A DNA stretch of 26,060 nucleotides from an uncultured Ruminococcus sp. (GTDB taxonomy: Bacteria; Bacillota; Clostridia; Oscillospirales; Acutalibacteraceae). Position 1 is the first letter of the stretch. The number at the start of each line of letters is the position of its first letter. Where the stretch lies: the NCBI GenBank assembly GCA_902762335.1, contig CACWNZ010000001.1, positions 1-26,060 on the forward strand. The letters are read 5' to 3'. Positions 3,455-20,452 of this stretch are shown piece by piece. The position numbers and the translations under genes were made by a program. The notes under the pieces are model-generated. The model saw only the letters and a program-made list of their open reading frames with translations, was not told the origin of the DNA and did no database searches.

Positions 3455-4366
3455 TTATTCGTCAAAGCTGCTGCTGTCGTAGCCGAGACTGCGCAGTATG
3501 GCTTCTCTGTTTCGCCAATCCTCCTTGACCTTTACCCATATCTGAAGGTTTACCCTGCACCCGAAGAAGCGCTCCATATCCTGTCTTGCATAGGTGCCTA
3601 TCTTTTTGAGCATGGAGCCGCCCTTTCCTATTATCATTCCCTTATGGCTTTCCCTCTCGCAGTAGATGACCGCGTCCATATCTATTATCTCCTTGTCGGG
3701 GCGCTCCTTCATTCTTTCAACGAACACCGCCGTCCCGTGAGGCACCTCCTTATCGAGCAGGCGCAGCAGCTTTTCTCTTATCATCTCGGCTGCAAGCACT
3801 CTTTCGGGCTGGTCGGTAAGGGTGTCCTCGTCAAAGAGGAAATCCCCCTCGTGCGCCTGCGCCCTCATCTCCTTTTTGAGAATATCCATGCCCGAGCCCG
3901 TCTGAGCGGAGCACGGCACAACGGCGCAGAAGTCGTAGAGCGAAGCAAGCTCCGCTATCTGCTTTGCAAGCACGGTCTTGTCGTTTATCGTATCTGTTTT
4001 GTTTATTGCAAGCACGGCGGGCAGTCCGAGCGAACGGAATTTTTCTATGAGCTGTTTTTCCTCCTCGGATATGCTTCTGTCCGCCTCTGTCACGAGAACG
4101 CACATATCCACACCCGCAACGGATTCGTTTATCGAGCGCAGCATAAAGCGGTCGAGGTCGTTTCTCGGCTTGTGCAGTCCCGGGGTATCTATGAAAACGA
4201 GCTGGCAGTCCTCCTCCGTGAGAACTCCCGTTATCCTCGTTCTTGTGGTCTGGGGCTTTGAAGAAACTATGGCTATCTTCTCGCCCAGAAGCCTGTTGAG
4301 TATAGAGGACTTGCCCACGTTGGGACGCCCGACTATTGCAATAAAGGCTGTTTTTCTTTCAGTCAC
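3455..4366 (-). CDS. era: GTPase Era
   Basis: GRPNVGKS, DTPG, NKTD, KH domain with IIGKGG; GTG start overlapping the dgkA stop. Confidence 0.98.
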   Translation of the reverse strand: MTERKTAFIAIVGRPNVGKSSILNRLLGEKIAIVSSKPQTTRTRITGVLTEEDCQLVFIDTPGLHKPRNDLDRFMLRSINESVAGVDMCVLVTEADRSISEEEKQLIEKFRSLGLPAVLAINKTDTINDKTVLAKQIAELASLYDFCAVVPCSAQTGSGMDILKKEMRAQAHEGDFLFDEDTLTDQPERVLAAEMIREKLLRLLDKEVPHGTAVFVERMKERPDKEIIDMDAVIYCERESHKGMIIGKGGSMLKKIGTYARQDMERFFGCRVNLQIWVKVKEDWRNREAILRSLGYDSSSFDE

Positions 4367-6653: not shown

Positions 6654-6950
6654 ATGACCATAGAACAAAAGAAGAACGGCTCAAGTGTCTGTATCGCCGT
6701 TGCGGGCAGGCTTGACACCGCCACCGCGCCCGAGCTTGAGAGCGCCATACAGGGCGTACCCGGCGATACCACCCTGCTCACCCTCGATCTTGAAAAGCTC
6801 GACTATATCTCCTCCGCAGGACTCAGGGTGCTGCTCTCGGCTCATAAGGCGATCAGCCCGAAGGGAAAGCTGAAGATCGTAAACGCCAACGAAGCCATAA
6901 CAGAGATCTTCGATATAACGGGCTTCTCGGCAATTCTTAATATCGGATAA
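6654..6950 (+). CDS. STAS-domain anti-sigma-factor antagonist (SpoIIAA/RsbV-like), copy 1
   Basis: 98 aa; GRLDTATAPELE and LDYISSAGLRVLL with the conserved phospho-acceptor Ser. Confidence 0.93.
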   Translation: MTIEQKKNGSSVCIAVAGRLDTATAPELESAIQGVPGDTTLLTLDLEKLDYISSAGLRVLLSAHKAISPKGKLKIVNANEAITEIFDITGFSAILNIG

Positions 6951-7017: not shown

Positions 7018-7662
7018 TCATATCTGTAAGGGACCGTTCCGTATCAGCCGCATTATCCCGGCGGCATCGAGCGGTATGATATGCAGCTCCGAAAACGGCT
7101 CGGAGCAGGCGGCCGCCACCGAGCGGTTTTTCCATACCGCGGAGCGGTAATACCATATCCTGCCGTCAAAGGCAAGACTGTCCGTTTCGGGATCCACGCA
7201 CAGGGAAACCGGCTCCACGCTCATACCGAGCCCCGCCGCCTTCAGTATGCTTTCCTTTATGCTCCACAGACGATAAAAGCGCTCAGGAGGGTCAGCCTTT
7301 ATCCATTCCCGTTCTTCAGGGCAAAAAACTAAGGGCGCAAGCTTCAGGTTTTCGCTGCTTATGCCCTCGATGTCCGTTCCGAGCTCACTGCCGCCGAAGG
7401 CGATCGCGGCGCAGCCGTCGGAATGGCTCAGACTGAAAAACCTGCCCGACCGCGAATACGGCTTGCCGTATTTATTCAGGCTTATATCGGCTTCCCTCTC
7501 ACCCGCGCAGCAGGTCAGCAGAAGCCCCGCCCCCATACACATAAGTCTGTCCTCATATCTGAGATAGCGCCGCGCTTTTTTCATTCTTTCGGGAAACAGA
7601 GCCTCGCACGGCTCCTCCCCCACCCTTGCAGCCTCTTCGTTTTCGATCGTATAAATATCCAT
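7018..7662 (-). CDS. Sfp-type 4'-phosphopantetheinyl transferase
   Basis: YGKPY, FSLSHS, GTDIE, WSIKESILKAAG motifs; ATG 7662 with GGGGGAG RBS. Confidence 0.92.
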   Translation of the reverse strand: MDIYTIENEEAARVGEEPCEALFPERMKKARRYLRYEDRLMCMGAGLLLTCCAGEREADISLNKYGKPYSRSGRFFSLSHSDGCAAIAFGGSELGTDIEGISSENLKLAPLVFCPEEREWIKADPPERFYRLWSIKESILKAAGLGMSVEPVSLCVDPETDSLAFDGRIWYYRSAVWKNRSVAAACSEPFSELHIIPLDAAGIMRLIRNGPLQI

Positions 7663-7833
7663 TCTCTCAACTCCCCCGAAGCCTTCGGCTTGTAAATAAT
7701 TATACGGCAAAGTCCGCGCACGGCGCAAGTTTTTCCGATCCGTACTGTCCGCCGTGAAACGACGAAATATCATAGCATTTTGCGAGGTCCCGTGCTATAA
7801 TATATTTATCAGTATCGAAAAGGAGAGGGTAAA

Positions 7834-9229: not shown

Positions 9230-10633
9230 TCAAACGCCCCTTATCGTCTCAAAATAAATACAGTCCCCGCCGCACCTGCCTTCAAAGGCTCCGCCGCAGA
9301 CGGGCATTTCGCAGAGCTTGTGCGAATCGTCGTCATTCCGTCCTATCCTCTTGCGGACGTAGCCGATATTCCTGAAATTATCCTCCTTGCCCTTTTTTAT
9401 GGCGGCGCAGGTATTTATCCATATAACGTTGCAGTCGTCATGGGCGCACAGGTCGAAAGACTGTCGGAAATCGTAGGAGCCCGTTGAAAAGGACGGAACG
9501 ATTATCAGCGTGAGCCTGAAGCAGCGCATGAGCTGCTCCATATATTTTGTCGTAAGAAAATCCTTGCATATAAGGATAGCGATCCGCCCTATCCCCTCGT
9601 AATGCAGGATATTTACCACTAAATTGGTTTTTATATCCTCTAAAAAGGCTTCTCCGTCCTGCTCCCTGCGGTAAGGATACTGCTTGCTCTGACAGCAGAC
9701 CTCGTCTCCGAAGCGGTCAAGCACGGTGACGGTATTCATACTATTTTCCCATACGGACGGCAGTATTATGAGCGAGGGCATTTTTTCCCGCTCCGAAGGC
9801 GGCAGGGCTTTCAGTCTGCCGCGGATATGATCCCGTGTCGCGCGGTTGCCGAGCAGCTCGGGAAAGACCATGATATCGCAGCCGTTTTCGGCGGCGTGCA
9901 GAAGCCTGCGCCATATCGCGCGGTTGTCCTCATCAAAGCTGCGGCTGTCGTATTCTATGCCGAGATACTGTATATCGTCTCGGATATAGGACAGCTCGGT
10001 ATAATGCTTTTCACGGCGCAGGGGAGATACGGCGACCCTTAAGCAGCCTCGGGACGAAAGACCCTGAAAGAGTCTGTCCGACAGAAAAATATGCTTATCG
10101 ATGAGCTCTCCGAGGACAGTGTTTTCGATGAGAAGGAAATTGAACAGGAAATTATCGAGTCTGTTATATGAATTTGAAAGCCTGTGACTGCGCTCCCATA
10201 CGCAGGAGCAGCGCGGCAGAAGCCCTATACCTACGGTCTCGCGGTTGGTATTCAGCACCACCGAAAAATCATCGCGCTGATAAGCCGCTATCCTTTCAAG
10301 CAGCAGCCCCTTCATAGCCTCGTCAAGAGTCTGCGCAAGAACTATCATGGCATAAGGCTCTCCCCTGCCCGCGAGCGCCGTAATATATCCCTCAAGCGCG
10401 GAATACAGACCCTCGCAGAGATCGCCGTCCCTCAGCCGACGAACACGGAGCGTCTTCCGTTCCGCAGGCGTATCCTCAAACAGCGCAGAGACGTTTACGG
10501 AAATATCACGGAGCATTTCCTCCCTGCGCTTGCGGCTGAGACAGCTGAATCTCACAAACAGAGACTCGTCAGGGCAGGAGCTTATTATCCTTGAGCACAG
10601 CTCCGCCAATATATTGCATATCCGCGTTATCAT
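9230..10633 (-). CDS. Hypothetical protein with C-terminal carbon-nitrogen hydrolase (nitrilase-fold) domain
   Basis: 467 aa, GGAGG RBS; DIMVFPEL (Glu), QSKQ (Lys), IAILICKD (Cys) and LIIVPS in the order expected for the E-K-C triad; N-terminal half not recognised. Confidence 0.7.
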   Translation of the reverse strand: MITRICNILAELCSRIISSCPDESLFVRFSCLSRKRREEMLRDISVNVSALFEDTPAERKTLRVRRLRDGDLCEGLYSALEGYITALAGRGEPYAMIVLAQTLDEAMKGLLLERIAAYQRDDFSVVLNTNRETVGIGLLPRCSCVWERSHRLSNSYNRLDNFLFNFLLIENTVLGELIDKHIFLSDRLFQGLSSRGCLRVAVSPLRREKHYTELSYIRDDIQYLGIEYDSRSFDEDNRAIWRRLLHAAENGCDIMVFPELLGNRATRDHIRGRLKALPPSEREKMPSLIILPSVWENSMNTVTVLDRFGDEVCCQSKQYPYRREQDGEAFLEDIKTNLVVNILHYEGIGRIAILICKDFLTTKYMEQLMRCFRLTLIIVPSFSTGSYDFRQSFDLCAHDDCNVIWINTCAAIKKGKEDNFRNIGYVRKRIGRNDDDSHKLCEMPVCGGAFEGRCGGDCIYFETIRGV

Positions 10634-10806: not shown

Positions 10807-10842
10807 AATATCATTAAATTACCGTATCAAAGGAGTTTTCTT

Positions 10843-13800
10843 ATGAGCAGTATTATCGAAAGAATACAAAAAAACATAGCGGACTATCCCGACCACGAAG
10901 TAATCGTCGATCAGGGCGAGAACAACAGCTTCACCTACCGTGAGTTCGATCTTTATGCCGCAAGAGTCGCCGCAAGGCTCAAAAAGCAGGGTGTAACAAG
11001 AGGTGATTTTGTCACCATCGAGCTTCCGAGAAACAAGGAGTATATCGCCTCAATGTACGCCGTATGGAGAGTCGGAGCGGCATTTGCGCCCCTGTCTCCG
11101 GCATATCCGGCGGAGCGTCTTGAATTTATCCGCAATGACTGCGACGCAAAGGCGGTCATCAATGAAAAATTCCTGCGTGACATCGAAAACGAGGAGCCGT
11201 TTTATGATATTGTGACACCCCGTCCGGAGGACCCTTCACTGCTGATATATACCTCGGGCTCTACGGGAAAGCCGAAGGGCGTTCTGCATACCCACGCGGG
11301 CATAGAGGATTCCATTGCAAGATACTCCGACTACGCAAAGCCGCCTATGGGCTTCCGCGCGGCACTCGGCGCGCCGTTTACCTTTGTCGCATCGGTACAG
11401 GGCGTATTTGCTCCGCTTTGTTCGTGTCTCACGGCGTATCTCATGCCCTATCAGGCAATGCGCGACCCCGTTCTCCTTGCCGATTATATCTATGAAAACA
11501 AGATAAACCGCACCTTTATCAGCCCGAAAATGCTCAAGGTGTTCAAGCCCAAGGGCGATTCACTCAAGGTGGTCTATACGGGCAGTGAGCGCGTCAGCAA
11601 TACCTACAGCGACGACTTTGAGATAATCGTCAGCTACGGTCAGACGGAATCCGCAGGCGCCGTAATGATGTTCAAACTTGACAGGAAATACGAAAACACG
11701 CCGATCGGCAAGCCTATCGGAGATATACGCATACATATACTTGACGAAAACGGCAGCGAAGCCGACGAGGGCGAGCTTTGTCTTGCGGGAATATTTGCGG
11801 AGTGCTACCTCAATCTTCCCGAGCAGACCGCCAAGACCTTTATCGACAATCCCTTTGCCGACGAGGACGGCTATAAAAAGCTGCTCAGAACAGGAGATAT
11901 CGTCAAAAAGGGTGAGGACGGCAATATCATCTATCTCAACCGCAGGGATTGGATGGTCAAGATAAACGGTCAGCGCGTTGAGCCGGGTGAAATAGAGGCT
12001 ATCATCAAGAGCACCGACGGCATACATGACGCCGCGCTCAAGGACTTCAAGAATCAGTACGGTCAGGTATATCTTGTCGCCTATTACGTTGAGAGCTCAC
12101 CCGTCAATGCCGATGATATAAAGGCGGCTATCTCCAAAAAGCTGCCGCCCTATATGATACCCGCCTTCTTTGTGCGTCTTGACAAGCTGCCCGTAAACGC
12201 AAACGGAAAGCTGGACAGAAACGCCCTTATCGCTCCCGAGGCAGGCAGCTTCAAGACCGACTATATCGCTCCCGAAACCGATATGCAGAAGGTGCTGTGT
12301 TCCGCCTTTGAAGCCGTTCTCGGTGTTGAGAACGTGGGCATTGACGACGATTTCTTCGCTCTCGGCGGCGATTCTATCAAGTGCGCCATGACTGCGGCAA
12401 AGTGCGGCGTGTATAAAATTTCCACCGCAGATATCTTTGCCGGAAAGACTCCCCGCATGATAGAGCGTCTGCTCATTCAGAAGGCGTCTGCAAAGAGCGT
12501 TGTCAAAAAGGAAAAGAAAGCAAGGATATATCCGCTGACCCCCTCGGAAAGAGGAATGTATCTTGAACAGAAGCTGAACGAAAAGTCGGTAGTCTATAAT
12601 CTGAATATCGCCGCTATCATAAAAGGCTCAGATATTGAAAAGATAAAAGAAGCTCTTAATGCCGTTTTCAGGGCTCACGAGGCGTTCTACTCCTATTACG
12701 GCGAAGAAAACGGTCTGCCCGTTCGTATTCTCTCCGACAAGCTGCCCGAGATCAAGGAAAAGACCGCCGCAACCCGTGAGGAAGTCATTGACATAATAGA
12801 CAGCTATGCGGAGCCCTTCGACCTCAATACGGGCATTCCCGTCAGACCTACTCTCTATTCCGTCGCGGACGGCAGCGTGATACTTCATCTCGCGATACAT
12901 CATATCGCCTTTGACGGCGGCTCGGCAAAGACCTTTGTAAGCGAGCTGATCGACGGTCTTAACGGCAAAGAGATCACCGCCGCCGAGATAGACCTCTCCG
13001 ACCTCTACAGCGACAGCCTTGAAGCAAAATATGAGAGCGGTCTGAAATATTACAGAGAGATTTTCTCGGACGGCGTACCCGTGAACGAAATGCCCACAAA
13101 GGGCAAGCGTCCGAAGGTGCATCCGCTTTCCGACCGTCAGATCGACTTTGATATAGACAACGAAAAGCTGAAAGCAATCGACAATACCGCCCGCAAATTC
13201 AGCGTGACGGAGTTTGAGCTGATCTTCTCGGCTGTGTCCATGACCCTCGGAAAATACACCTCGTCCGAGGACGTGGTTTTAGGCATTCCCACAAATATGC
13301 GCCCCAACGGCGCCGATAACGTCATCGGTATGTTCGTCAACACCGCTCCCGTCCGTGTACGCCCGAAGCGTAACGCGGAAATTCAGGATTATTTGCAGAG
13401 TGTCAGCGAAGCCGTGCGCAGCGTGACATACGGCGCATATCTGCCCTTTGAGGACGTTGTTGCCGAATTTGTAAAGCAACGTGACGAGTCCCGCAACCCA
13501 ATGTTTGACGTGAGCGTCAACTTCATGTGGAATCCGCCAGCCTACAACAAGGACGGTCTGAGCGTTGAGATGTATTCGCCTCTCCAGAAGATGAGCCGCG
13601 ATATCGGCATCGTCATACGCAAGGGCGCAAAGGGTCTGCACTTTATGGTGCAGTATTCCTCGGAGCTTTTTGAGGATACCCTGATAGAGAACTTCATCGA
13701 GCAGCTCAGATCGGCAATCGATCTGCTCGGCACGGCAGCAACGGTAAGAGATGCTCTTGTCCTTCCCGAAAAGCAGAAGGAACAGCTTGAGAAATTCGCC

Positions 13801-16773
13801 GTTGAAGCCGAAGAGGAAATACCCGTAACGCTGCTGCACAAGCTCTTTGAAAAGAGCGTTTCCGAAAACAAAGACAAGACCGCGCTCATCGCAAAGGACT
13901 GCACACTTACATACGATGAACTGAACAAGAGGGCAAATATCGTTGCCCATAACCTGATAGACAGGGGTATAAAAACAGGAGACAGCGTAGCCCTTCTTCT
14001 GCCGAGAGAAAGCTGCTTCTTTGCCTGTATGTTCGGCGTTAACAAGGCGGGAGCGGCGTTCATACCCTGCGACCCGCAGTACCCCGCAGACAGGATAAAC
14101 CATATCATTACCGACTCCGAAGCATCATTTATCATCACCACAGCCGACAAGCTTGCGGATTATCCCGCCGACAAGGCTATCAATGTTGAGGACATCACAA
14201 AGGGCGCTCAGACGGAGAATCCCGATGTAGAGATGAGCGACCGGGAGCTTGCGTATATGATCTATACCTCAGGCTCCACCGGAAAGCCCAAGGGCGTTAT
14301 GCTCCGGCACAGAGGTATCTGCAACTATCTCATGCCCCACCCCGCAAATTCACATATCTATTATCTGAAAAACAATGTCAGCACCTATCTTTCCGTGACG
14401 ACCGTCTCCTTTGATATGTCATTTAAGGAACACACGGCAGCCTTCTGCAACGGCAAGACCCTTGTGTTTGCCGGCGAGGACGAGATGAATGACCCCCGCG
14501 CCCTTGCCGAGCTTATGGAAAAGTACAATGTTGACTGTATAAACGCGACCCCGTCAAGACTCCAGCAGTATCTTGAATATACTCCGTTCAAGACTGTCCT
14601 TTCAAAGTGCCGTCTTGTCATGTCCGGCGGCGAGGGATATCCCATGTCCCTGCGCGACACAATAAAGGAATGTTCAAAAGAAATAAAAATAGTCAATACC
14701 TACGGTCCTACCGAGATCACCGTCTCCTGTAACGCGGCGGACCTTACAAACGCTTCTCAGGTCACCGTCGGCAGACCGCTGCTGAATTATAACGAGGTCA
14801 TCGTTGATAAATTCGGAGACGTATCGCCCTACGGCGTTGTGGGTGAGCTTTATATCGGCGGCGTGGGAGTTGCAAAGGGATACCGCAATCTGCCCGAAAA
14901 GACAGCGCAGGCATTTGTTGAGTTCGGCGGTCAGCGGATGTACCGCTCCGGCGACTATGCAAAGTGGGACAAGGACGGAAACGTGCATATCCTCGGCAGA
15001 CTTGACAGTCAGGTCAAGCTCCGTGGACTGCGTATAGAGCTGGGCGAAATTGAAGGGCTTATCGCACAGCAGCCCCACATCAAGAAGGTCGCAGTAATCA
15101 TCCGCAAGCTCAGCGGTCAGGAGAATCTCTGTGCCTACTTTACCGCCGATACCGAAATTGATATAAATGCACTCAGGGATGAGCTGAAAAAGCACCTGAC
15201 CCATTATATGATACCCACTGCATATCTCCAGATGAACGAAATGCCCATGACCGCCAACGGCAAGACCGACACCAAAATGCTGCCCGACCCCGTTCCCGTT
15301 AGCCTCGGAGAATACGTCGCTCCCGCTAACAAGACCGAGGAGTTCTTCTGCGAGTCCTTCAGAAAGGTGCTTAAGCTTGACCGTGTGGGCGCTACCGATG
15401 ACTTCTTTGAGATAGGCGGCACCTCGCTGATCGTTACTTCAGTCGTACTTGACGCGTCCGAAAACGGCTTCAGCATAACCTACGGCGACGTATTCAAATA
15501 TACCACCCCGAGAGCCCTTGCTGAGCTCTTCAAGGACGGAGAGGTCAACGACACAAACAAGCTGTTTGATTTTGAGGGCTATGACTATTCAAAGATAAAC
15601 GAGCTGCTGTCAAAGAACAACGTTGAAGCCTTCCGCAGCGGAGAAATAAAAGAGCTCGGGAATGTACTCATCACCGGCGCAACCGGCTATATGGGCGCTC
15701 ACCTGCTTGCTGAGTACCTCAAGCGTGAAAGCGGCAAAGCATACTGTATGGTGCGAAAGGGCAGGTTTGATTCCGCCGCCGAGCGCCTTGAGAACATGAT
15801 GTTCTATTACTTCGGCTCTGATCTTGAAGAAGAATTCAAAAGCCGCGTTGAGGTGCTGAACGGCGACGTTACCGACTACAAATACTTTGAGCCCTTTGAG
15901 ACTCTGCCGATAAACACCGTGTTCAACTGCGCGGCAAACGTAAAGCACTTCTCCAACGGCACAGACATCGAAGACATCAACGTAGGCGGCGCCGTCAACT
16001 GCATAAAGCTCTGCCGGAAACTGAGCGCAAGGCTGATACACTTTTCCACCGTTTCCGTTTCGGGAACAACAGACGACATTTCCAAGCTCAGCCGCCGCGA
16101 GCTTGACGAGCAGACGCTCTATTACGGTCAGACCCTCGACAACAAATACACCTCCTCAAAGCTCATGGGTGAGCGCATGGTGCTTGAAGCCGCCGCAGAA
16201 GGACTTGACGCAAAGGTCATTCGCGTAGGCACTCTTGCCGCCCGCGAATCCGACGGCGAGTTCCAGATAAACTTCCTCACCAACAACTTTATGGGACGTC
16301 TGCGCTCCTACAGCCTGCTCGGCTGCTTCCCCTACAGCATGATAGAGAATCAGGTATGCATGGGACCGATAGACCGTTCCTGCGAAGCCTTCCTCAAGCT
16401 TGCAAAGACCCCGAAGGAATGCTGCGTGTTCAATGCGGTAAACAACCACACACTTCCGCTTGGCGATATTATCCGTCAGATGAACGAAAACGGCAGCAAG
16501 GTAGATTTTGTAGAGTACGAGGAATTTGCCGCGGCTCTGCACGAAGCCCAGAAAGACCCGGACAAAGCCGCAATTCTCTCAAGTATGACGGCGTATATGA
16601 ACACCGCTCACGGCAAAAAGATAGTCGCCCTGCCCTTCAACGCCCACTATACCACACAGATACTCGCCCGCATGGGCTTCTTCTGGAATGCAAGCAACGA
16701 AAAATACGTGGGTGACTTCATCAACGTACTGCGCGGCTTCCTGTTCTTCCGCAAGGACAATCTCAAAAGATAA
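10843..16773 (+). CDS. Bimodular non-ribosomal peptide synthetase, A-T-C-A-T-R (terminal thioester reductase)
   Basis: 1976 aa from ATG 10843; two YTSGSTGKPKG A3 motifs; T domains GGDSI (Ser 12373) and GGTSL (Ser 15424); C domain HHIAFDG (12898-12918); R domain ITGATGYMG and YTSSK. Confidence 0.97.
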   Translation: MSSIIERIQKNIADYPDHEVIVDQGENNSFTYREFDLYAARVAARLKKQGVTRGDFVTIELPRNKEYIASMYAVWRVGAAFAPLSPAYPAERLEFIRNDCDAKAVINEKFLRDIENEEPFYDIVTPRPEDPSLLIYTSGSTGKPKGVLHTHAGIEDSIARYSDYAKPPMGFRAALGAPFTFVASVQGVFAPLCSCLTAYLMPYQAMRDPVLLADYIYENKINRTFISPKMLKVFKPKGDSLKVVYTGSERVSNTYSDDFEIIVSYGQTESAGAVMMFKLDRKYENTPIGKPIGDIRIHILDENGSEADEGELCLAGIFAECYLNLPEQTAKTFIDNPFADEDGYKKLLRTGDIVKKGEDGNIIYLNRRDWMVKINGQRVEPGEIEAIIKSTDGIHDAALKDFKNQYGQVYLVAYYVESSPVNADDIKAAISKKLPPYMIPAFFVRLDKLPVNANGKLDRNALIAPEAGSFKTDYIAPETDMQKVLCSAFEAVLGVENVGIDDDFFALGGDSIKCAMTAAKCGVYKISTADIFAGKTPRMIERLLIQKASAKSVVKKEKKARIYPLTPSERGMYLEQKLNEKSVVYNLNIAAIIKGSDIEKIKEALNAVFRAHEAFYSYYGEENGLPVRILSDKLPEIKEKTAATREEVIDIIDSYAEPFDLNTGIPVRPTLYSVADGSVILHLAIHHIAFDGGSAKTFVSELIDGLNGKEITAAEIDLSDLYSDSLEAKYESGLKYYREIFSDGVPVNEMPTKGKRPKVHPLSDRQIDFDIDNEKLKAIDNTARKFSVTEFELIFSAVSMTLGKYTSSEDVVLGIPTNMRPNGADNVIGMFVNTAPVRVRPKRNAEIQDYLQSVSEAVRSVTYGAYLPFEDVVAEFVKQRDESRNPMFDVSVNFMWNPPAYNKDGLSVEMYSPLQKMSRDIGIVIRKGAKGLHFMVQYSSELFEDTLIENFIEQLRSAIDLLGTAATVRDALVLPEKQKEQLEKFAVEAEEEIPVTLLHKLFEKSVSENKDKTALIAKDCTLTYDELNKRANIVAHNLIDRGIKTGDSVALLLPRESCFFACMFGVNKAGAAFIPCDPQYPADRINHIITDSEASFIITTADKLADYPADKAINVEDITKGAQTENPDVEMSDRELAYMIYTSGSTGKPKGVMLRHRGICNYLMPHPANSHIYYLKNNVSTYLSVTTVSFDMSFKEHTAAFCNGKTLVFAGEDEMNDPRALAELMEKYNVDCINATPSRLQQYLEYTPFKTVLSKCRLVMSGGEGYPMSLRDTIKECSKEIKIVNTYGPTEITVSCNAADLTNASQVTVGRPLLNYNEVIVDKFGDVSPYGVVGELYIGGVGVAKGYRNLPEKTAQAFVEFGGQRMYRSGDYAKWDKDGNVHILGRLDSQVKLRGLRIELGEIEGLIAQQPHIKKVAVIIRKLSGQENLCAYFTADTEIDINALRDELKKHLTHYMIPTAYLQMNEMPMTANGKTDTKMLPDPVPVSLGEYVAPANKTEEFFCESFRKVLKLDRVGATDDFFEIGGTSLIVTSVVLDASENGFSITYGDVFKYTTPRALAELFKDGEVNDTNKLFDFEGYDYSKINELLSKNNVEAFRSGEIKELGNVLITGATGYMGAHLLAEYLKRESGKAYCMVRKGRFDSAAERLENMMFYYFGSDLEEEFKSRVEVLNGDVTDYKYFEPFETLPINTVFNCAANVKHFSNGTDIEDINVGGAVNCIKLCRKLSARLIHFSTVSVSGTTDDISKLSRRELDEQTLYYGQTLDNKYTSSKLMGERMVLEAAAEGLDAKVIRVGTLAARESDGEFQINFLTNNFMGRLRSYSLLGCFPYSMIENQVCMGPIDRSCEAFLKLAKTPKECCVFNAVNNHTLPLGDIIRQMNENGSKVDFVEYEEFAAALHEAQKDPDKAAILSSMTAYMNTAHGKKIVALPFNAHYTTQILARMGFFWNASNEKYVGDFINVLRGFLFFRKDNLKR

Positions 16774-16785
16774 GGGGGCTGAAAT

Positions 16786-18519
16786 ATGAAACGCAGAGGA
16801 GATCTCCTCAACGAAAAATACCGCAGTCTGTTATGGGCGACCCTCGCAATGACGGCATCAAACTATCTCTCCGGGATACTTGACGGCATTATGGTGGGTC
16901 AGATGCTCGGTACCGTCGAGCTTTACGCTATCAACCTGACCACCTGTATCATCTTCCTGCGGAGCATCCCCATAGCCATGTTCACCTTCGGCGGCAACAC
17001 CCTGTCGGTCATCAGAAAAAGCAAGCGCGACGGACAGGGCGCCGATACCGTTTTTACACTGTCCTTCTGGGCGGGAATACTTTCCACTATACTTATTTCG
17101 ATCATCGGTCTTGCGGTGATAACCCCCACGGCGGAGCTTCTTGCTCAGGGAAAACAGGAGCTTGTCGGGCTCGTTATCGACTATCTCCTGCCCCTTTGGA
17201 TACTGACGCCATTGGTGGCGGCGGTAAATCAGACAGCCGCCTACGCCCGTACGGACGGTATGCGAAAATTGGCGACCGCCCTTCCCATTGTGGCAAACGT
17301 GGTCAATCTTGGCTGCGACGGACTGTATATGGGCGTATTCCATTGGGGCGTTGCGGGTGCGGGCTGGGCGACCGTGACCGGCTATATTGTCGGAACGGCG
17401 ATGACACTTATTTACTTCAAGTCAAAAAAGCGGACGGTGCATTTTACAAAGGAAGCTCTGAAAAAGCTCAGGGAGCTCGGAAAGATATTCGGTGTTGGTC
17501 TCCCCTCTGCCCTGATCTATGTGTGCAACTTCCTCAGGCTGTTCTTTACAAACGCCATAATACTTTCGGCGACGGGCGTTGTGGGCGGCAAGATAGCCTC
17601 TGTTTCCTTCTCACTGAACAGCCTTGCATTCATCTTTGTTGAGGGCGCGTCTATGACCCTTCTGCCGATACTCGGCGCGCTCTACGGCGAAAAGGATACC
17701 AACGGACAAAAGCTTACCCTGCGCTACGGCATGATCATCACGGTCGGTCTTTCGGTCGCAGTGTTCATCCTGTCAGAACTTCTGCCGGTACAGCTTGCGT
17801 CCATGTACGGACTTACCGACCCTGCGGTCACAGAGGTATTTGCGGCGACCTTCCGCATCTTCTCAATAAATATCCCGATACTCGGCGTTATCTACGTCAT
17901 GCGCTCGTTCTTTCAGGCGACGAAGCAGAGAGGGCTTGCAAATCTGCTCGTCATGCTGGACGGCGTGCTTACGATAGTCCCTCTCATGTATTGGTTTTCC
18001 CATTATGATATCTATTGGCTGTGGATGTCCTTCCCGGTTTCAAAGGCATTAACGGTAATCATCACATTTGCAGCAATGCTTATCGGCAAAAGGGTAAAGA
18101 AAAAGAAAAACCTGCTCGGCATTGAGGAGCAGGACGGGATCGCTTTCGACTTTACCATAGACAATGAGGTATCGCAGGCAATAAAGGCGTCAGAGGAAGC
18201 TATAAGCTTCTGTCAGGAAAAGTCTCTTCCCGAAAACACGGTAAACGCCGTCGGCGTAACGGTAGAGGAGCTTTGCCACAATATTGCAACCTATGCCCGC
18301 TCATCCACCAACAAGACCGTTGACGTCTGTGTGCGTATCTTTGACGACAAGGTGAACATCCGCCTGCGTGACAACGGGGTGGAGTTTGACCCGACAGATT
18401 ACATCGACACGAGCGGAAAGCGCATAACAGGGCTTACGCTTGTCAGAAAGCTCAGCTCGTCGATCAGCTATAACCGTGTTTTAGGCTTCAACGTGACAAA
18501 CGTAACGATAAATTATTGA
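16786..18519 (+). CDS. MATE-family efflux transporter fused to a C-terminal RsbW-like HATPase domain
   Basis: About 450 aa multi-TM region with MATE-type motifs (LPIVANVVNLGCDGLYMGVFHWGVAGAGWAT; LPILGALYGEKD), then EELCHNIATYA and RDNGVEFDP. Confidence 0.9.
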   Translation: MKRRGDLLNEKYRSLLWATLAMTASNYLSGILDGIMVGQMLGTVELYAINLTTCIIFLRSIPIAMFTFGGNTLSVIRKSKRDGQGADTVFTLSFWAGILSTILISIIGLAVITPTAELLAQGKQELVGLVIDYLLPLWILTPLVAAVNQTAAYARTDGMRKLATALPIVANVVNLGCDGLYMGVFHWGVAGAGWATVTGYIVGTAMTLIYFKSKKRTVHFTKEALKKLRELGKIFGVGLPSALIYVCNFLRLFFTNAIILSATGVVGGKIASVSFSLNSLAFIFVEGASMTLLPILGALYGEKDTNGQKLTLRYGMIITVGLSVAVFILSELLPVQLASMYGLTDPAVTEVFAATFRIFSINIPILGVIYVMRSFFQATKQRGLANLLVMLDGVLTIVPLMYWFSHYDIYWLWMSFPVSKALTVIITFAAMLIGKRVKKKKNLLGIEEQDGIAFDFTIDNEVSQAIKASEEAISFCQEKSLPENTVNAVGVTVEELCHNIATYARSSTNKTVDVCVRIFDDKVNIRLRDNGVEFDPTDYIDTSGKRITGLTLVRKLSSSISYNRVLGFNVTNVTINY

Positions 18520-18968: not shown

Positions 18969-20141
18969 ATGAAGGATACGAAGATCATTATTGCGGGCGA
19001 CCTTATGCCTATGCCCTGCAATTACGGGCTGTTTTCCGACGGAGACGCGCAGGCTCTTTTCGGAAAAAGACTCTGCGATATGTTTGCTTCGGCGGACTAC
19101 CGGATATGCAATTTTGAAGGCTGTTTTACCGACGGCGACAATCCCATTGAAAAGACAGGTCCTGTGATAAAGGCACCGACTTCAACCATTAAGGCGATAA
19201 AGGCTCTCGGCATAAACTATGCCACCCTCGGCAACACCCACTCAATGGACAACGGCAGACAGGGCTATCTTGATACCTGCCGTACCCTTGAAGAAAACGG
19301 CATAGGCTATTTCGGCTGGGGCGACGATATCAATTCCGTCAGAACTCACGTCAGACTGACGGACTGCGGCAGGCGCATCGTACTTTATAACGTGACCGAG
19401 CTGTTTGAGAACGCTCCGGGTGAGAACACCCCGGGTGTGAATCTCTATGATGAATACCGTGTCTGTCAGGAACTGAAAGAGCTTAAAGCGGAGTGTGACC
19501 TTCTTATCGTGTTCTATCACGGCGGCATTGAAGGGTCGCATTATAACAGCGAGGTCATGCGGAAACGCTTTCACCGTATGGCGGACAGCGGCGCAGACGT
19601 GATAATTTCACAGCATACCCACGCGATCGGCGAAGAGGAGCATTATAACGGCTCATATCTTCTCTACGGTCAGGGGAATTTCTGCTTCCATTTCCGCAGT
19701 GAGGTCACCCCGCTTCTTGCCGAGGGACTCGTGCTTGAGATAGACCTCAACGACAGCGGCTTCACGGCAAAGCCCCACCGCATTATCCGCACCGAAAAGG
19801 GCTGCGTCTATGATGAAAAGCAGGAGCTTGATGAGTTCTATGCCCGAAGCAGAATGCACGACGCGCTTCTCAATGGCGACAGGGCGGCAAAAGAGGAGTT
19901 TGAACGGAACTTTTCAGAGGACTGCAAAAGCTGGCTGACCCAGTTCCTTCTGACCTTCAGGGGCATTGACCCCGAGATCGCAAAATTACGCAAGGAGCTT
20001 TCACCGTCAGAATTAAGGGATCATCTTATCTCCCTCTACCCCAGACCATATCTGACAGCTCTTCTGACGTTTCTGAAAAATGAAGAATTCAACGAGATCG
20101 GCAGACGGCTCCTGAGCGATCTGCTCAAAGAAAAACAATAA
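18969..20141 (+). CDS. CapA/PgsA-family metallophosphoesterase-fold protein
   Basis: IIIAGD, CNFEG, LGNTHSMD, FYHGG, GADVIISQHTH, YGQGNFCF motifs; starts 1 nt after the kinase stop. Confidence 0.85.
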   Translation: MKDTKIIIAGDLMPMPCNYGLFSDGDAQALFGKRLCDMFASADYRICNFEGCFTDGDNPIEKTGPVIKAPTSTIKAIKALGINYATLGNTHSMDNGRQGYLDTCRTLEENGIGYFGWGDDINSVRTHVRLTDCGRRIVLYNVTELFENAPGENTPGVNLYDEYRVCQELKELKAECDLLIVFYHGGIEGSHYNSEVMRKRFHRMADSGADVIISQHTHAIGEEEHYNGSYLLYGQGNFCFHFRSEVTPLLAEGLVLEIDLNDSGFTAKPHRIIRTEKGCVYDEKQELDEFYARSRMHDALLNGDRAAKEEFERNFSEDCKSWLTQFLLTFRGIDPEIAKLRKELSPSELRDHLISLYPRPYLTALLTFLKNEEFNEIGRRLLSDLLKEKQ

Positions 20142-20155
20142 AGGAGAAAACAACA

Positions 20156-20452
20156 ATGACGATAAAGACTTATGAAAAGGACGGCTCACCCGTCGTTGCA
20201 CCCGAGGGAAGGATCGACCACGTTACGGCTGCCGAATTTGAACAGAAGATAAACGAGGTCGGCAGGGACAGCGATAAATTGACTCTTGACTTGGCGGGCG
20301 TAGAATACGTCAGCTCCGCCGCACTCAGAGTTATTCTGAAGGCAAACGATATGGTAAAGGACAAGGGCGGCATGATCATCATAAACGTAAACCGCAAGGT
20401 CATGGAGATCTTCAACGTAACGGGCTTTTCCGATTATCTTGACATCAGATGA
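20156..20452 (+). CDS. STAS-domain anti-sigma-factor antagonist, copy 2
   Basis: 98 aa; EGRIDHVTAAEFE and VEYVSSAALRVIL; AAGGAG RBS. Confidence 0.93.
   Translation: MTIKTYEKDGSPVVAPEGRIDHVTAAEFEQKINEVGRDSDKLTLDLAGVEYVSSAALRVILKANDMVKDKGGMIIINVNRKVMEIFNVTGFSDYLDIR

Follow-up and report, generated by a model that had tools for sequence, protein, structure and literature searches.

Among the biosynthetic genes of gut and rumen bacteria, NRPSs that end in a reductase rank with the most frequent, and their peptide aldehydes inhibit proteases. One such product is ruminopeptin, described as an N-acylated Leu-Glu aldehyde (PMC8518294). A second point of reference is provided by adenylation (A) domains that select keto acids rather than amino acids, namely those of CesA, CesB, StsA and CrpD-M2, in which position 235 is aliphatic and the Pro of motif A5 is replaced (PMC11253843, PMC13643306, PMC4455996). 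In StsA, CesA/CesB and similar keto-acid A domains, loss of the A5 Pro ranks as the second hallmark. StsA carries Ile306 and Met415, and the substitution M415P abolished its adenylation activity; in LgrA, P483M or P483A conferred slight activity towards the 2-oxo counterpart of Val (PMC11253843).

Here we focus on a two-module NRPS from an uncultured Ruminococcus sp., encoded within a 26,060-nt stretch of DNA (the window), whose first A domain (A1) lacks both Asp235 and the A5 Pro. Judging from its sequence, A1 is likely a working A domain of a distinct N-terminal starter clade that does not bind an alpha-amino group, and the product is likely an N-acyl amino aldehyde. The enzyme is thus most likely a short variant of the known gut protease-inhibitor pathways.

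The NRPS gene and its neighbours

The domain order A-T-C-A-T-R, obtained with Pfam, is that of AusA-type synthetases (Table 1). The ATG at 10843 is preceded by an AGGAG box at 10831-10835 and coincides with the start in database records of the same protein. As the original prediction held, neither a ketoreductase (KR) nor a starter C domain is present: the Pfam scan of the NRPS returned no KR and no N-terminal C domain.

Table 1. Features of the NRPS locus, with coordinates in the window; homologues are 94 two-module NRPSs from rumen Clostridia (A1 core identity 65-100%).
Feature	Coordinates	Strand	Evidence
Sfp-type phosphopantetheinyl transferase	7018..7773	-	Domain search
NRPS gene, A1-T1-C-A2-T2-R, 1976 aa	10843..16773	+	Pfam; identical 1976-aa record P0002
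A1, Asp-less starter adenylation domain, residues 1-505	10843..12357	+	Alignments; TIGR01733 score
GTC = Val182, GrsA Asp235 position, A4 motif FTFVASVQ	11386..11388	+	HMMER, MAFFT
Gln267 in A5 (YGQTE), replacing conserved Pro	11641..11643	+	Alignments; Gln in 94/94 homologues
A8 motif NRRDWMVKINGQRVEPGEIE, with atypical Asn in place of Gly and of Arg; fixed in family	11938..11997	+	94-homologue alignment
Lys456, Lys517 equivalent in A10 (NGKLDR), retained	12208..12210	+	Alignment, conservation
T1 Ser511 (GGDSI), phosphopantetheine attachment site	12373..12375	+	Ser in 94/94 homologues
C domain, HHIAFDG; closest NCBIfam model is the AusA C domain	12520..13788	+	Pfam, NCBIfam
A2, canonical amino-acid A domain	13846..15264	+	Code alignment; TIGR01733
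T2 carrier domain	15346..15528	+	Pfam
Terminal reductase (NAD_binding_4), predicted aldehyde release	15670..16773	+	Pfam
MATE exporter fused to HATPase_c_2 domain, conserved neighbour	16786..18519	+	In 43/80 loci
PGA_cap (CapA-like) protein, frequent NRPS neighbour	18969..20141	+	Weak MslH match

Across related loci, the PGA_cap gene lies either upstream or downstream of the NRPS. Inspection of 80 such loci turned up no KR, no aminotransferase and no other gene for making a substrate that is conserved next to the NRPS, and the acid loaded by A1 should therefore be a common metabolite. An upstream 467-aa ORF, matched by no Pfam or NCBIfam model, and a NUDIX gene were considered as substrate suppliers and set aside, as neither has a counterpart beside the NRPS in the 80 loci.

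The second A domain (A2) keeps its Asp, as had been predicted, in a motif that reads VSFDMSF. Its code, D-M-K-N-M-G-T-V-S-K, is invariant in 90 of the 94 homologues and common to three-module and C-starter relatives. Given this invariant code with its Lys239, A2 probably loads Glu, or else a different polar or acidic residue.

The A1 pocket

The original prediction, made by eye, called for a proper alignment of A1, and this was run. It places Val, not Asp, at the Asp235 position: Val182 aligns with the Asp of LgrA FSFDGS (HMMER) and with the Asp of FDASVWE in a GrsA orthologue and in TycA (MAFFT), which bears out both the A4 motif and the Val codon as first read. From the latter two proteins the codes DAWTVAAICK (GrsA orthologue) and DAWTIAAICK (TycA) were extracted as a reference; the reference specificity code is given in PMC11355689. 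The A1 code that emerges from the HMMER and MAFFT alignments is V-A-Q-F-Y-G-S-G-A-K. The code first proposed, V-A-Q-F-V-T-S-G-A-K, was right at eight positions and off by one at 299 and 301, which are Tyr and Gly instead of Val and Thr, since the GGE/AGS motif is matched by TGSE in the alignments. Acidic residues are absent from the eight residues to either side of Val182 and from all other positions of the A1 code.

A second change is found in motif A5, canonically YGPTE, where Gln267 occupies the site of GrsA Pro325 and LgrA Pro483. The A8 motif contains NRRDWMVKING and is atypical, as first described. The ATP-binding motifs A3, A7 and A8 and the Lys517 equivalent are all present in A1. TIGR01733, the NCBIfam model for amino-acid adenylation, scores A1 at 258.6 bits, under its cut-off of 317.4, and A2 at 368.5, over it. 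Of the NCBIfam models, that of AusA is the best hit of both A1 and the C domain; for A2 it comes second, just behind TIGR01733.

Other known departures from the canonical pocket do not describe A1. In beta-amino-acid A domains with a V-D code the Asp has moved to 236, a position that is Ala in A1. (V-D and I-D codes do occur elsewhere among the A domains of the data set.) Aryl-acid A domains of the DhbE/EntE type have Asn235 and the A5 motif QQVxFMAEGL (PMC11253843), instead of which A1 has Val235 and VSYGQTES. For fungal aromatic keto-acid domains, a code of V-A-E-F-S-G-G-A-C-K was discarded for comparison since it conflicts with the published position 5, which is Asn, Ile or Val.

Both changes, the absence of Asp235 and Gln for the A5 Pro, are fixed in all 94 homologues, with Val at position 235 in 89 and Ile in 5. 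Motifs A3, A5, A7, A8 and A10 of A1 are invariant in the same set, as are the P-loop, TGD, the hinge Asp, the A10 Lys, the T1 Ser and the HHxxxDG of the C domain (94/94). With 235 always Val or Ile and the catalytic motifs invariant, Val182 is no chance change. Core identity is 73% for A1 and 76% for the C domain; this conservation, in line with that of the other domains, together with the invariant motifs suggests that A1 is active. Pocket positions 299 and 322 of A1 do vary, and different family members may therefore load different acids.

To place these changes in a wider context, we turned to 863 A domains from a background of 149 other mega-synthetases ranked by summed score. Loss of Asp235 tracks loss of the A5 Pro (18 of 21 domains without the Asp, versus 90 of 842 with it), with an odds ratio of 50 that is inflated by shared ancestry. 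As about 11% of the Asp-containing domains in this set also lack the Pro, Pro loss is a non-specific marker.

A starter clade and its candidate acids

In the tree, A1 sits in a clade of 45 tips, a count inflated through shared ancestry, all of which lack the Asp and the Pro. Every member begins within 25 residues of the N terminus of its own protein, and the clade spans six architectures of 1976 to 7514 aa. Support for the stem is weak for the two deepest members (0.28, 0.63) and reaches 0.92 for the inner 43 tips. A1 has every feature by which the clade of Asp-less N-terminal starter A domains was defined in the present analysis, and about 360 species-level genomes encode an A1 relative. Among three-module and C-starter relatives from several phyla, every readable N-terminal A domain lacks both residues; R. 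bromii is not among the best 80 loci for the three-module query. Relatives of about 2450 aa have the order C-A-T-C-A-T-R, with the last module as here. Beside the same last module, the same slot is thus filled in some synthetases by an A-T-C unit and in others by a starter C domain, which points to A1 as the loader of an N-cap.

We therefore propose that A1 would adenylate a free carboxylic acid without an alpha-amino group and load it onto T1. The C domain would acylate the A2-loaded residue with it on the amino group, the terminal reductase would free the N-acyl amino aldehyde, and the adjacent MATE pump would export it. A1 would then fill the role of the starter C domain in sister synthetases, using free acids rather than acyl thioesters. 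A carboxylic-acid loader and an N-capped amino aldehyde were what the original prediction envisaged, and this reading is well supported by the comparative evidence. Acid loading is suggested by the lost A5 Pro, by the fixation of both changes, by a clade found only at N termini, by the alternation with starter C domains and by the TIGR01733 score under cut-off; if A1 is blind to the alpha-amino group, the product would be an N-capped amino aldehyde.

Which acid this might be can be put only as a rough split. Short and branched-chain as well as phenyl-substituted fatty acids are abundant in the rumen, and such an alpha-unsubstituted acid is our first candidate, at somewhat less than even confidence. 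A 2-oxo acid is possible though doubtful, a 2-hydroxy acid unlikely, and what is left of the split goes to something else.

Through reductive carboxylation, Ruminococcus of the rumen turns volatile fatty acids into branched-chain 2-oxo acids, which would suit an A1 that selects a 2-oxo (alpha-keto) acid in the manner of the cereulide and StsA loaders. Such an enzyme would release an N-(2-oxoacyl) amino aldehyde, its keto group staying in place because there is no ketoreductase. Two fixed features fit this, an aliphatic 235 and a residue other than Pro behind the A5 Gly (PMC11253843, PMC13643306), and the A1 pocket has small residues at 330/331 (G or S followed by A or G), much like the S then G of CesA/CesB. 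However, A1 falls outside the Ces/Sts clade. With plasmid pCER270 taken for the comparison, A1 shows 21% identity to the keto-type Ces domains (E 3e-8), versus 30% to the domains of amino-acid type in those proteins (E 5e-66). Nor is a KR either embedded in the NRPS (Pfam) or conserved beside it in the 80 loci. Moreover, the two diagnostic positions drift freely over the wider starter clade (V, I, A, S or G at 235; Q, L, C, M, S, A or T at 325), a pattern suggestive of constraint that relaxed once amine binding had been lost and not of a tuned keto site, and the slot alternates with a starter C domain, an installer of ordinary acyl groups.

The 2-oxo acid also bears on the earlier claim that the product cannot cyclise to a pyrazinone. 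This stands for plain or hydroxy acids and fails for a 2-oxo acid, for which ring closure with ammonia is chemically conceivable. It is a long shot that the cap is indeed an unreduced 2-oxo group, with the N-(2-oxoacyl) amino aldehyde serving as a dual-electrophile inhibitor or giving a pyrazinone anaerobically, and with a selectivity evolved independently of Ces/Sts. If it were so, a protease inhibitor could bear two electrophiles, a ketoamide and an aldehyde, or the ammonia-rich, oxygen-free rumen could give an aromatic pyrazinone directly. Pyrazinone signals would then have an anaerobic path that skips the oxidation required for dipeptide aldehydes, and selection of keto acids by an A domain would have arisen apart from the Ces/Sts type.

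It is improbable that A1 still activates an alpha-amino acid without the Asp, so as to yield an AusA-type dipeptide aldehyde and from it a dihydropyrazinone or pyrazinone. The AusA architecture and the AusA model as best NCBIfam match for A1 and C are what this would lead one to expect, and A1 is nearest to amino-acid A domains (LgrA). Moreover, McyG adenylates L-Phe in vitro in spite of its Val at 235 (PMC11253843), and the missing Asp is thus no strict bar to an amino acid. In A1, however, two amine-contact features are gone, not one; the clade is confined to N termini, where a nucleophilic amine is unneeded; the A-T-C unit alternates with starter C domains; and the score lies under the curated TIGR01733 cut-off. 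That A1 is decayed and inactive, leaving a single amino aldehyde made from A2 only, is very improbable: atypical A4, A5 and A8 motifs and the low TIGR01733 score might suggest it, but the catalytic residues of A1, T1 and C are invariant in 94/94, the core identity of A1 is close to that of the C domain, and even the atypical residues are fixed, a sign of selection and not of decay.

The analysis brings to light a large uncharacterised clade of starter domains, which appear to cap peptides with a free acid in place of a starter C domain. If this reading is borne out, Val or Ile at 235 with a non-Pro residue at 325 would be a simple genome-mining rule for acid-loading starter modules, N-acyl amino aldehydes made from abundant fermentation acids would be expected in the rumen, and engineered synthetases would gain a compact A-T unit for N-capping. 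As the smallest member, the two-module form is the easiest to express and assay.

Comparison with known systems

The ruminopeptin (rup) type of gut and rumen relatives has a terminal reductase, aldehyde release and an N-acyl cap in common with this NRPS. It differs in that only two modules are present here, where an A-T unit is predicted to load the cap as a free acid; two modules would make an N-acyl aldehyde of one amino acid, the middle residue being absent. The original prediction spoke of a different product class, which was an overstatement, as N-acylated peptide aldehydes are known in the superfamily, ruminopeptin among them (PMC8518294). With that class already known, the product would be a variant and not a new class.

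AusA, the aureusimine synthetase, and the gut A-T-C-A-T-R family have an identical domain order. However, AusA loads two amino acids, and A1 is without Asp235 and the A5 Pro; the free amine for pyrazinone closure should thus be absent, unlike in AusA products. CesA, CesB, StsA and CrpD-M2 have both pocket changes in common with A1, CesA and CesB reading Val at 235 and GMSE (Met for the A5 Pro). In contrast to A1, which has no KR and has Gln325, the Ces/Sts-type domains carry an insertion after A5, an embedded KR and Met325. The loading A domain of McyG (microcystin) resembles A1, by its published description, in its Val at 235 and its N-terminal loading role; McyG is part of a PKS-NRPS hybrid and is reported to adenylate L-Phe (PMC11253843). 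Finally, the starter C domains of lipo-initiation occupy the same slot, with the same N-capping role, in sister synthetases, but differ in fold and in chemistry, their substrates being acyl thioesters and not free acids activated with ATP.

Residues 235 and 325 of the first adenylation domain

The product of the window's one large gene, an NRPS protein identical to database record P0002, has the domain order A1-T1-C-A2-T2-R (A, adenylation; T, carrier; C, condensation; R, reductase), as given by Pfam matches to two AMP-binding, one Condensation, two carrier and a terminal NAD_binding_4 reductase domain. As originally predicted, Pfam found neither a ketoreductase (KR) nor an N-terminal C domain in it. 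The same prediction, made by eye, held that A1 lacks the Asp that binds the amino group and so probably loads a non-amino-acid starter. Its A4 motif is FTFVASVQ, in which GTC at 11386-11388 encodes Val182. In the HMMER alignment with LgrA, the best-matching relative of solved structure (E 5e-142), this Val stands opposite the Asp of FSFDGS. A MAFFT alignment of A1 and A2 with a GrsA orthologue (L081) and TycA (L100), which supplies the true GrsA numbering, confirmed that Val182, not Asp, occupies position 235, and no acidic residue was found near this site or at the other A1 code positions. Codes were extracted at fixed offsets from FDASVWE, which returned DAWTVAAICK for the GrsA orthologue and DAWTIAAICK for TycA, the published reference code being D-A-W-T-I-A-A-I-C-K (PMC11355689). 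A1 reads V-A-Q-F-Y-G-S-G-A-K and A2 reads D-M-K-N-M-G-T-V-S-K. The by-eye code was right except at 299 and 301, where its V and T were shifted by one residue (TGSE aligns with the GGE/AGS motif, in agreement with HMMER against LgrA).

A second residue is also lost. The A5 motif of A1 is YGQTE, its Gln lying opposite Pro483 of LgrA by HMMER (chain numbered 210-732) and opposite the Pro of YGPTE in GrsA, TycA and A2 by MAFFT. In StsA, a keto-acid domain, Ile306 takes the place of the Asp, and the single other essential contact is made by the backbone carbonyl between Gly414 and Met415, the latter corresponding to the conserved Pro of amino-acid A domains. M415P abolished adenylation by StsA, and P483M or P483A in LgrA gave a small gained activity on 2-oxoisovalerate (reviewed in PMC11253843). 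CesA and CesB (sequences from pCER270), with keto-acid selection established by experiment (PMC4455996), carry HVGG and GMSE in their keto-acid A domains and FD and YGPTE in their amino-acid A domains. With Val at 235 and Gln for the A5 Pro, A1 thus has both changes. Among 863 A domains of 149 unrelated large synthetases, 752 keep both Asp and Pro, 90 keep only the Asp, 3 keep only the Pro and 18 keep neither, so that loss of Asp235 is tied to loss of the Pro (odds ratio 50; Fisher p 1.5e-14, inflated by shared ancestry).

Conservation and the N-terminal clade

In 94 two-module homologues, 65% to 100% identical to the window protein in the A1 core, position 235 is Val (89) or Ile (5), and all 94 have Gln in A5. 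No variation occurs in the P-loop, TGD, A10 Lys, T1 Ser or C-domain HHxxxDG, and mean identity is 73% in the A1 core vs 76% in the C domain. This conservation argues that A1 should be neither a chance substitution nor decayed, but a selected domain predicted to be active. Its A8 motif, earlier noted as atypical, is fixed in this set as NR[RK]DWMVKING. Variation in A1 falls at 299 and 322 and to a lesser extent at 330 and 331, while V/I-A-Q-F (positions 235, 236, 239 and 278) and the Gly of position 301 are kept; the A2 code is unchanged in 90 of the 94.

In a FastTree phylogeny of 262 A domains, A1 falls in a 45-tip clade, whose inner 43 tips are joined with a support of 0.92 and whose two deepest tips are weakly supported. 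Wherever a member is named, it comes from an uncultured gut or rumen bacterium. Every tip lacks both Asp235 and Pro325 and begins no more than 25 residues from the protein N terminus, across six architectures (1976, about 2950, 3305, 4009, 4945 and 7514 aa). A starter without an amino group would agree with this restriction to positions that require no nucleophilic amine. A second NRPS of the window's own genome has an N-terminal A domain (L114; G000:C144:1609-3096, minus strand) that is 44% identical to A1 and also lacks both residues (code A-W-A-Y-K-A-I-Q-C-K, Thr at 325). A multi-module NRPS running from a contig edge (G000:C63; L115, L117, L118) has the A2 code in its first module. Internal, non-starter A domains with the code V-G-W-E-I-T-T-D-V-K and Gln at 325 occur in the proteins P0137 (starting at 2577, 5086 and 6116) and P0234 (starting at 3621), sister in the tree to D-I-W-E-L-T-A-D-D-K domains; being Asp-less yet in elongation position, their substrate nucleophile must sit elsewhere.

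A wider scan used the three-module relative P0111 as query, and its best 80 loci were examined. The matches listed included Clostridia, Muribaculaceae, Prevotellaceae, Alistipes, Fibrobacter, Desulfovibrionaceae, Melainabacteria and Acholeplasmatales. Among them, every readable N-terminal A domain has V, I, A, S or G instead of the Asp and Q, L, C, M, S, A or T instead of the Pro, and the last-module code is mostly that of A2. One set of relatives, each about 2450 aa long, keeps a normal Asp in the first A domain, which comes only near residue 440; two of these are C-A-T-C-A-T-R (Pfam: two Condensation, two AMP-binding), and a 2976-aa relative is A-T-C-A-T-C-A-T-R. One slot is therefore filled by either a starter C domain or an Asp-less A-T-C unit, and we read this alternation as the strongest argument that A1 would install an N-acyl cap.

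Distribution and gene neighbourhood

Features of the NRPS region in the window
Feature	Positions	Strand	Remarks
ORF	9230-10633	-	467 aa
Sfp-type PPTase			upstream of NRPS
NRPS gene	10843-16773	+	1976 aa; ATG at 10843; AGGAG box 8 nt before ATG
MATE exporter fused to kinase-like domain			downstream of NRPS
Second kinase-like gene			downstream of NRPS
PGA_cap (CapA-like) gene	18969-20141	+	downstream of NRPS
STAS gene			downstream of NRPS
PP2C phosphatase gene			downstream of NRPS
98-aa paralogue 1	6654-6950	+	flanks cluster
98-aa paralogue 2	20156-20452	+	flanks cluster

In species-representative genomes, relatives of A1 are encoded in 360 stretches, of which the best 80 come almost entirely from rumen or ruminant-gut Clostridia (Ruminococcus, Acutalibacteraceae, Lachnospiraceae, Eubacterium), including the isolates Ruminococcus sp. 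JE7B6, JL13D9 and FC2018 and Pseudobutyrivibrio sp. ACV-2. Neighbours in these 80 loci are the STAS gene (51), the MATE fusion (43), the kinase-like gene (43), PGA_cap (31) and PP2C (23). The window's upstream genes are not conserved at the NRPS in this set; the 467-aa ORF, which matches no Pfam or NCBIfam model, and the adjoining NUDIX gene have no counterparts beside it. The counterpart in L006 of the downstream 98-aa paralogue has a Pfam STAS match. In the 80 loci the NRPS is not accompanied by a KR, aminotransferase or dehydrogenase, so a common metabolite is the expected starter.

PGA_cap, a frequent companion of the NRPS, mostly sits downstream of it, but in one subclade it is the gene immediately upstream. 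The sole NCBIfam match of the window's copy, MslH (lasso-peptide C-terminal Trp epimerase), is weak (48.8 bits) and far under the cut-off. A subclade with the A1 code V-A-Q-F-S-G-A-G-A-K (loci L056, L058, L059, L060, L062, L063, L068, L074) has a different upstream operon, in the order RimK-like ATP-grasp ligase, two ABC exporter genes, a 448-aa F390-synthetase/PaaK-like adenylating enzyme, PGA_cap and NRPS; given this operon, the product in these species may be extended at a free carboxylate. Close relatives in Bacteroidota (Prevotellaceae, Muribaculaceae, Alistipes), Fibrobacter and Desulfovibrionaceae (loci L144, L150-L152, L154, L155, L159, L161, L167, L169, L173, L185, L193) and in Melainabacteria (L147) point to wide horizontal spread of this Firmicutes-type synthetase in gut communities.

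The acid probably loaded and the expected product

Several classes could be set aside. A1 scores 258.6 bits against TIGR01733 (NCBIfam cut-off 317.4; A2 368.5) and so fails as a curated amino-acid adenylation domain. Ala rather than Asp at 236 rules out a beta-amino-acid type, and the aryl-acid motifs (PMC11253843) are absent. In CesA and CesB, the amino-acid A domains resemble A1 more closely (30% identity, E 5e-66) than do the keto-acid A domains (21%, E 3e-8), which differ from it in A4 context and in an insertion after A5. A1 thus lies outside the Ces keto-acid clade, and any keto-acid selection by A1 would be convergent.

From sequence comparison, on which substrate class and product rest, we tentatively favour an alpha-unsubstituted acid. 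A 2-oxo acid, which seems rather unlikely, would account for the two hallmark changes and for the small residues at 330 and 331, a trait shared with CesA and CesB; however, KR is absent, 235 and 325 drift freely across the wider clade in a manner resembling relaxed constraint, and the A1 unit is equivalent to a starter C domain, an installer of ordinary acyl groups. Were the acid 2-oxo, the prediction that the product cannot cyclise would need a caveat, since, by chemical inference, a 2-oxoacyl amino aldehyde combined with ammonia would match a pyrazinone in oxidation level. A 2-hydroxy acid is improbable, and an amino acid is more doubtful still.

Published accounts describe ruminopeptin of Ruminococcus bromii as an N-acylated Leu-Glu aldehyde (PMC8518294, PMC12327764). 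Its structure, as described there, agrees with the three-part relatives of the window NRPS, and this fit suggests that the last module which these relatives share with the window NRPS loads Glu. The window enzyme would then release an N-acyl Glu-type aldehyde, one residue shorter than a ruminopeptin-type product.
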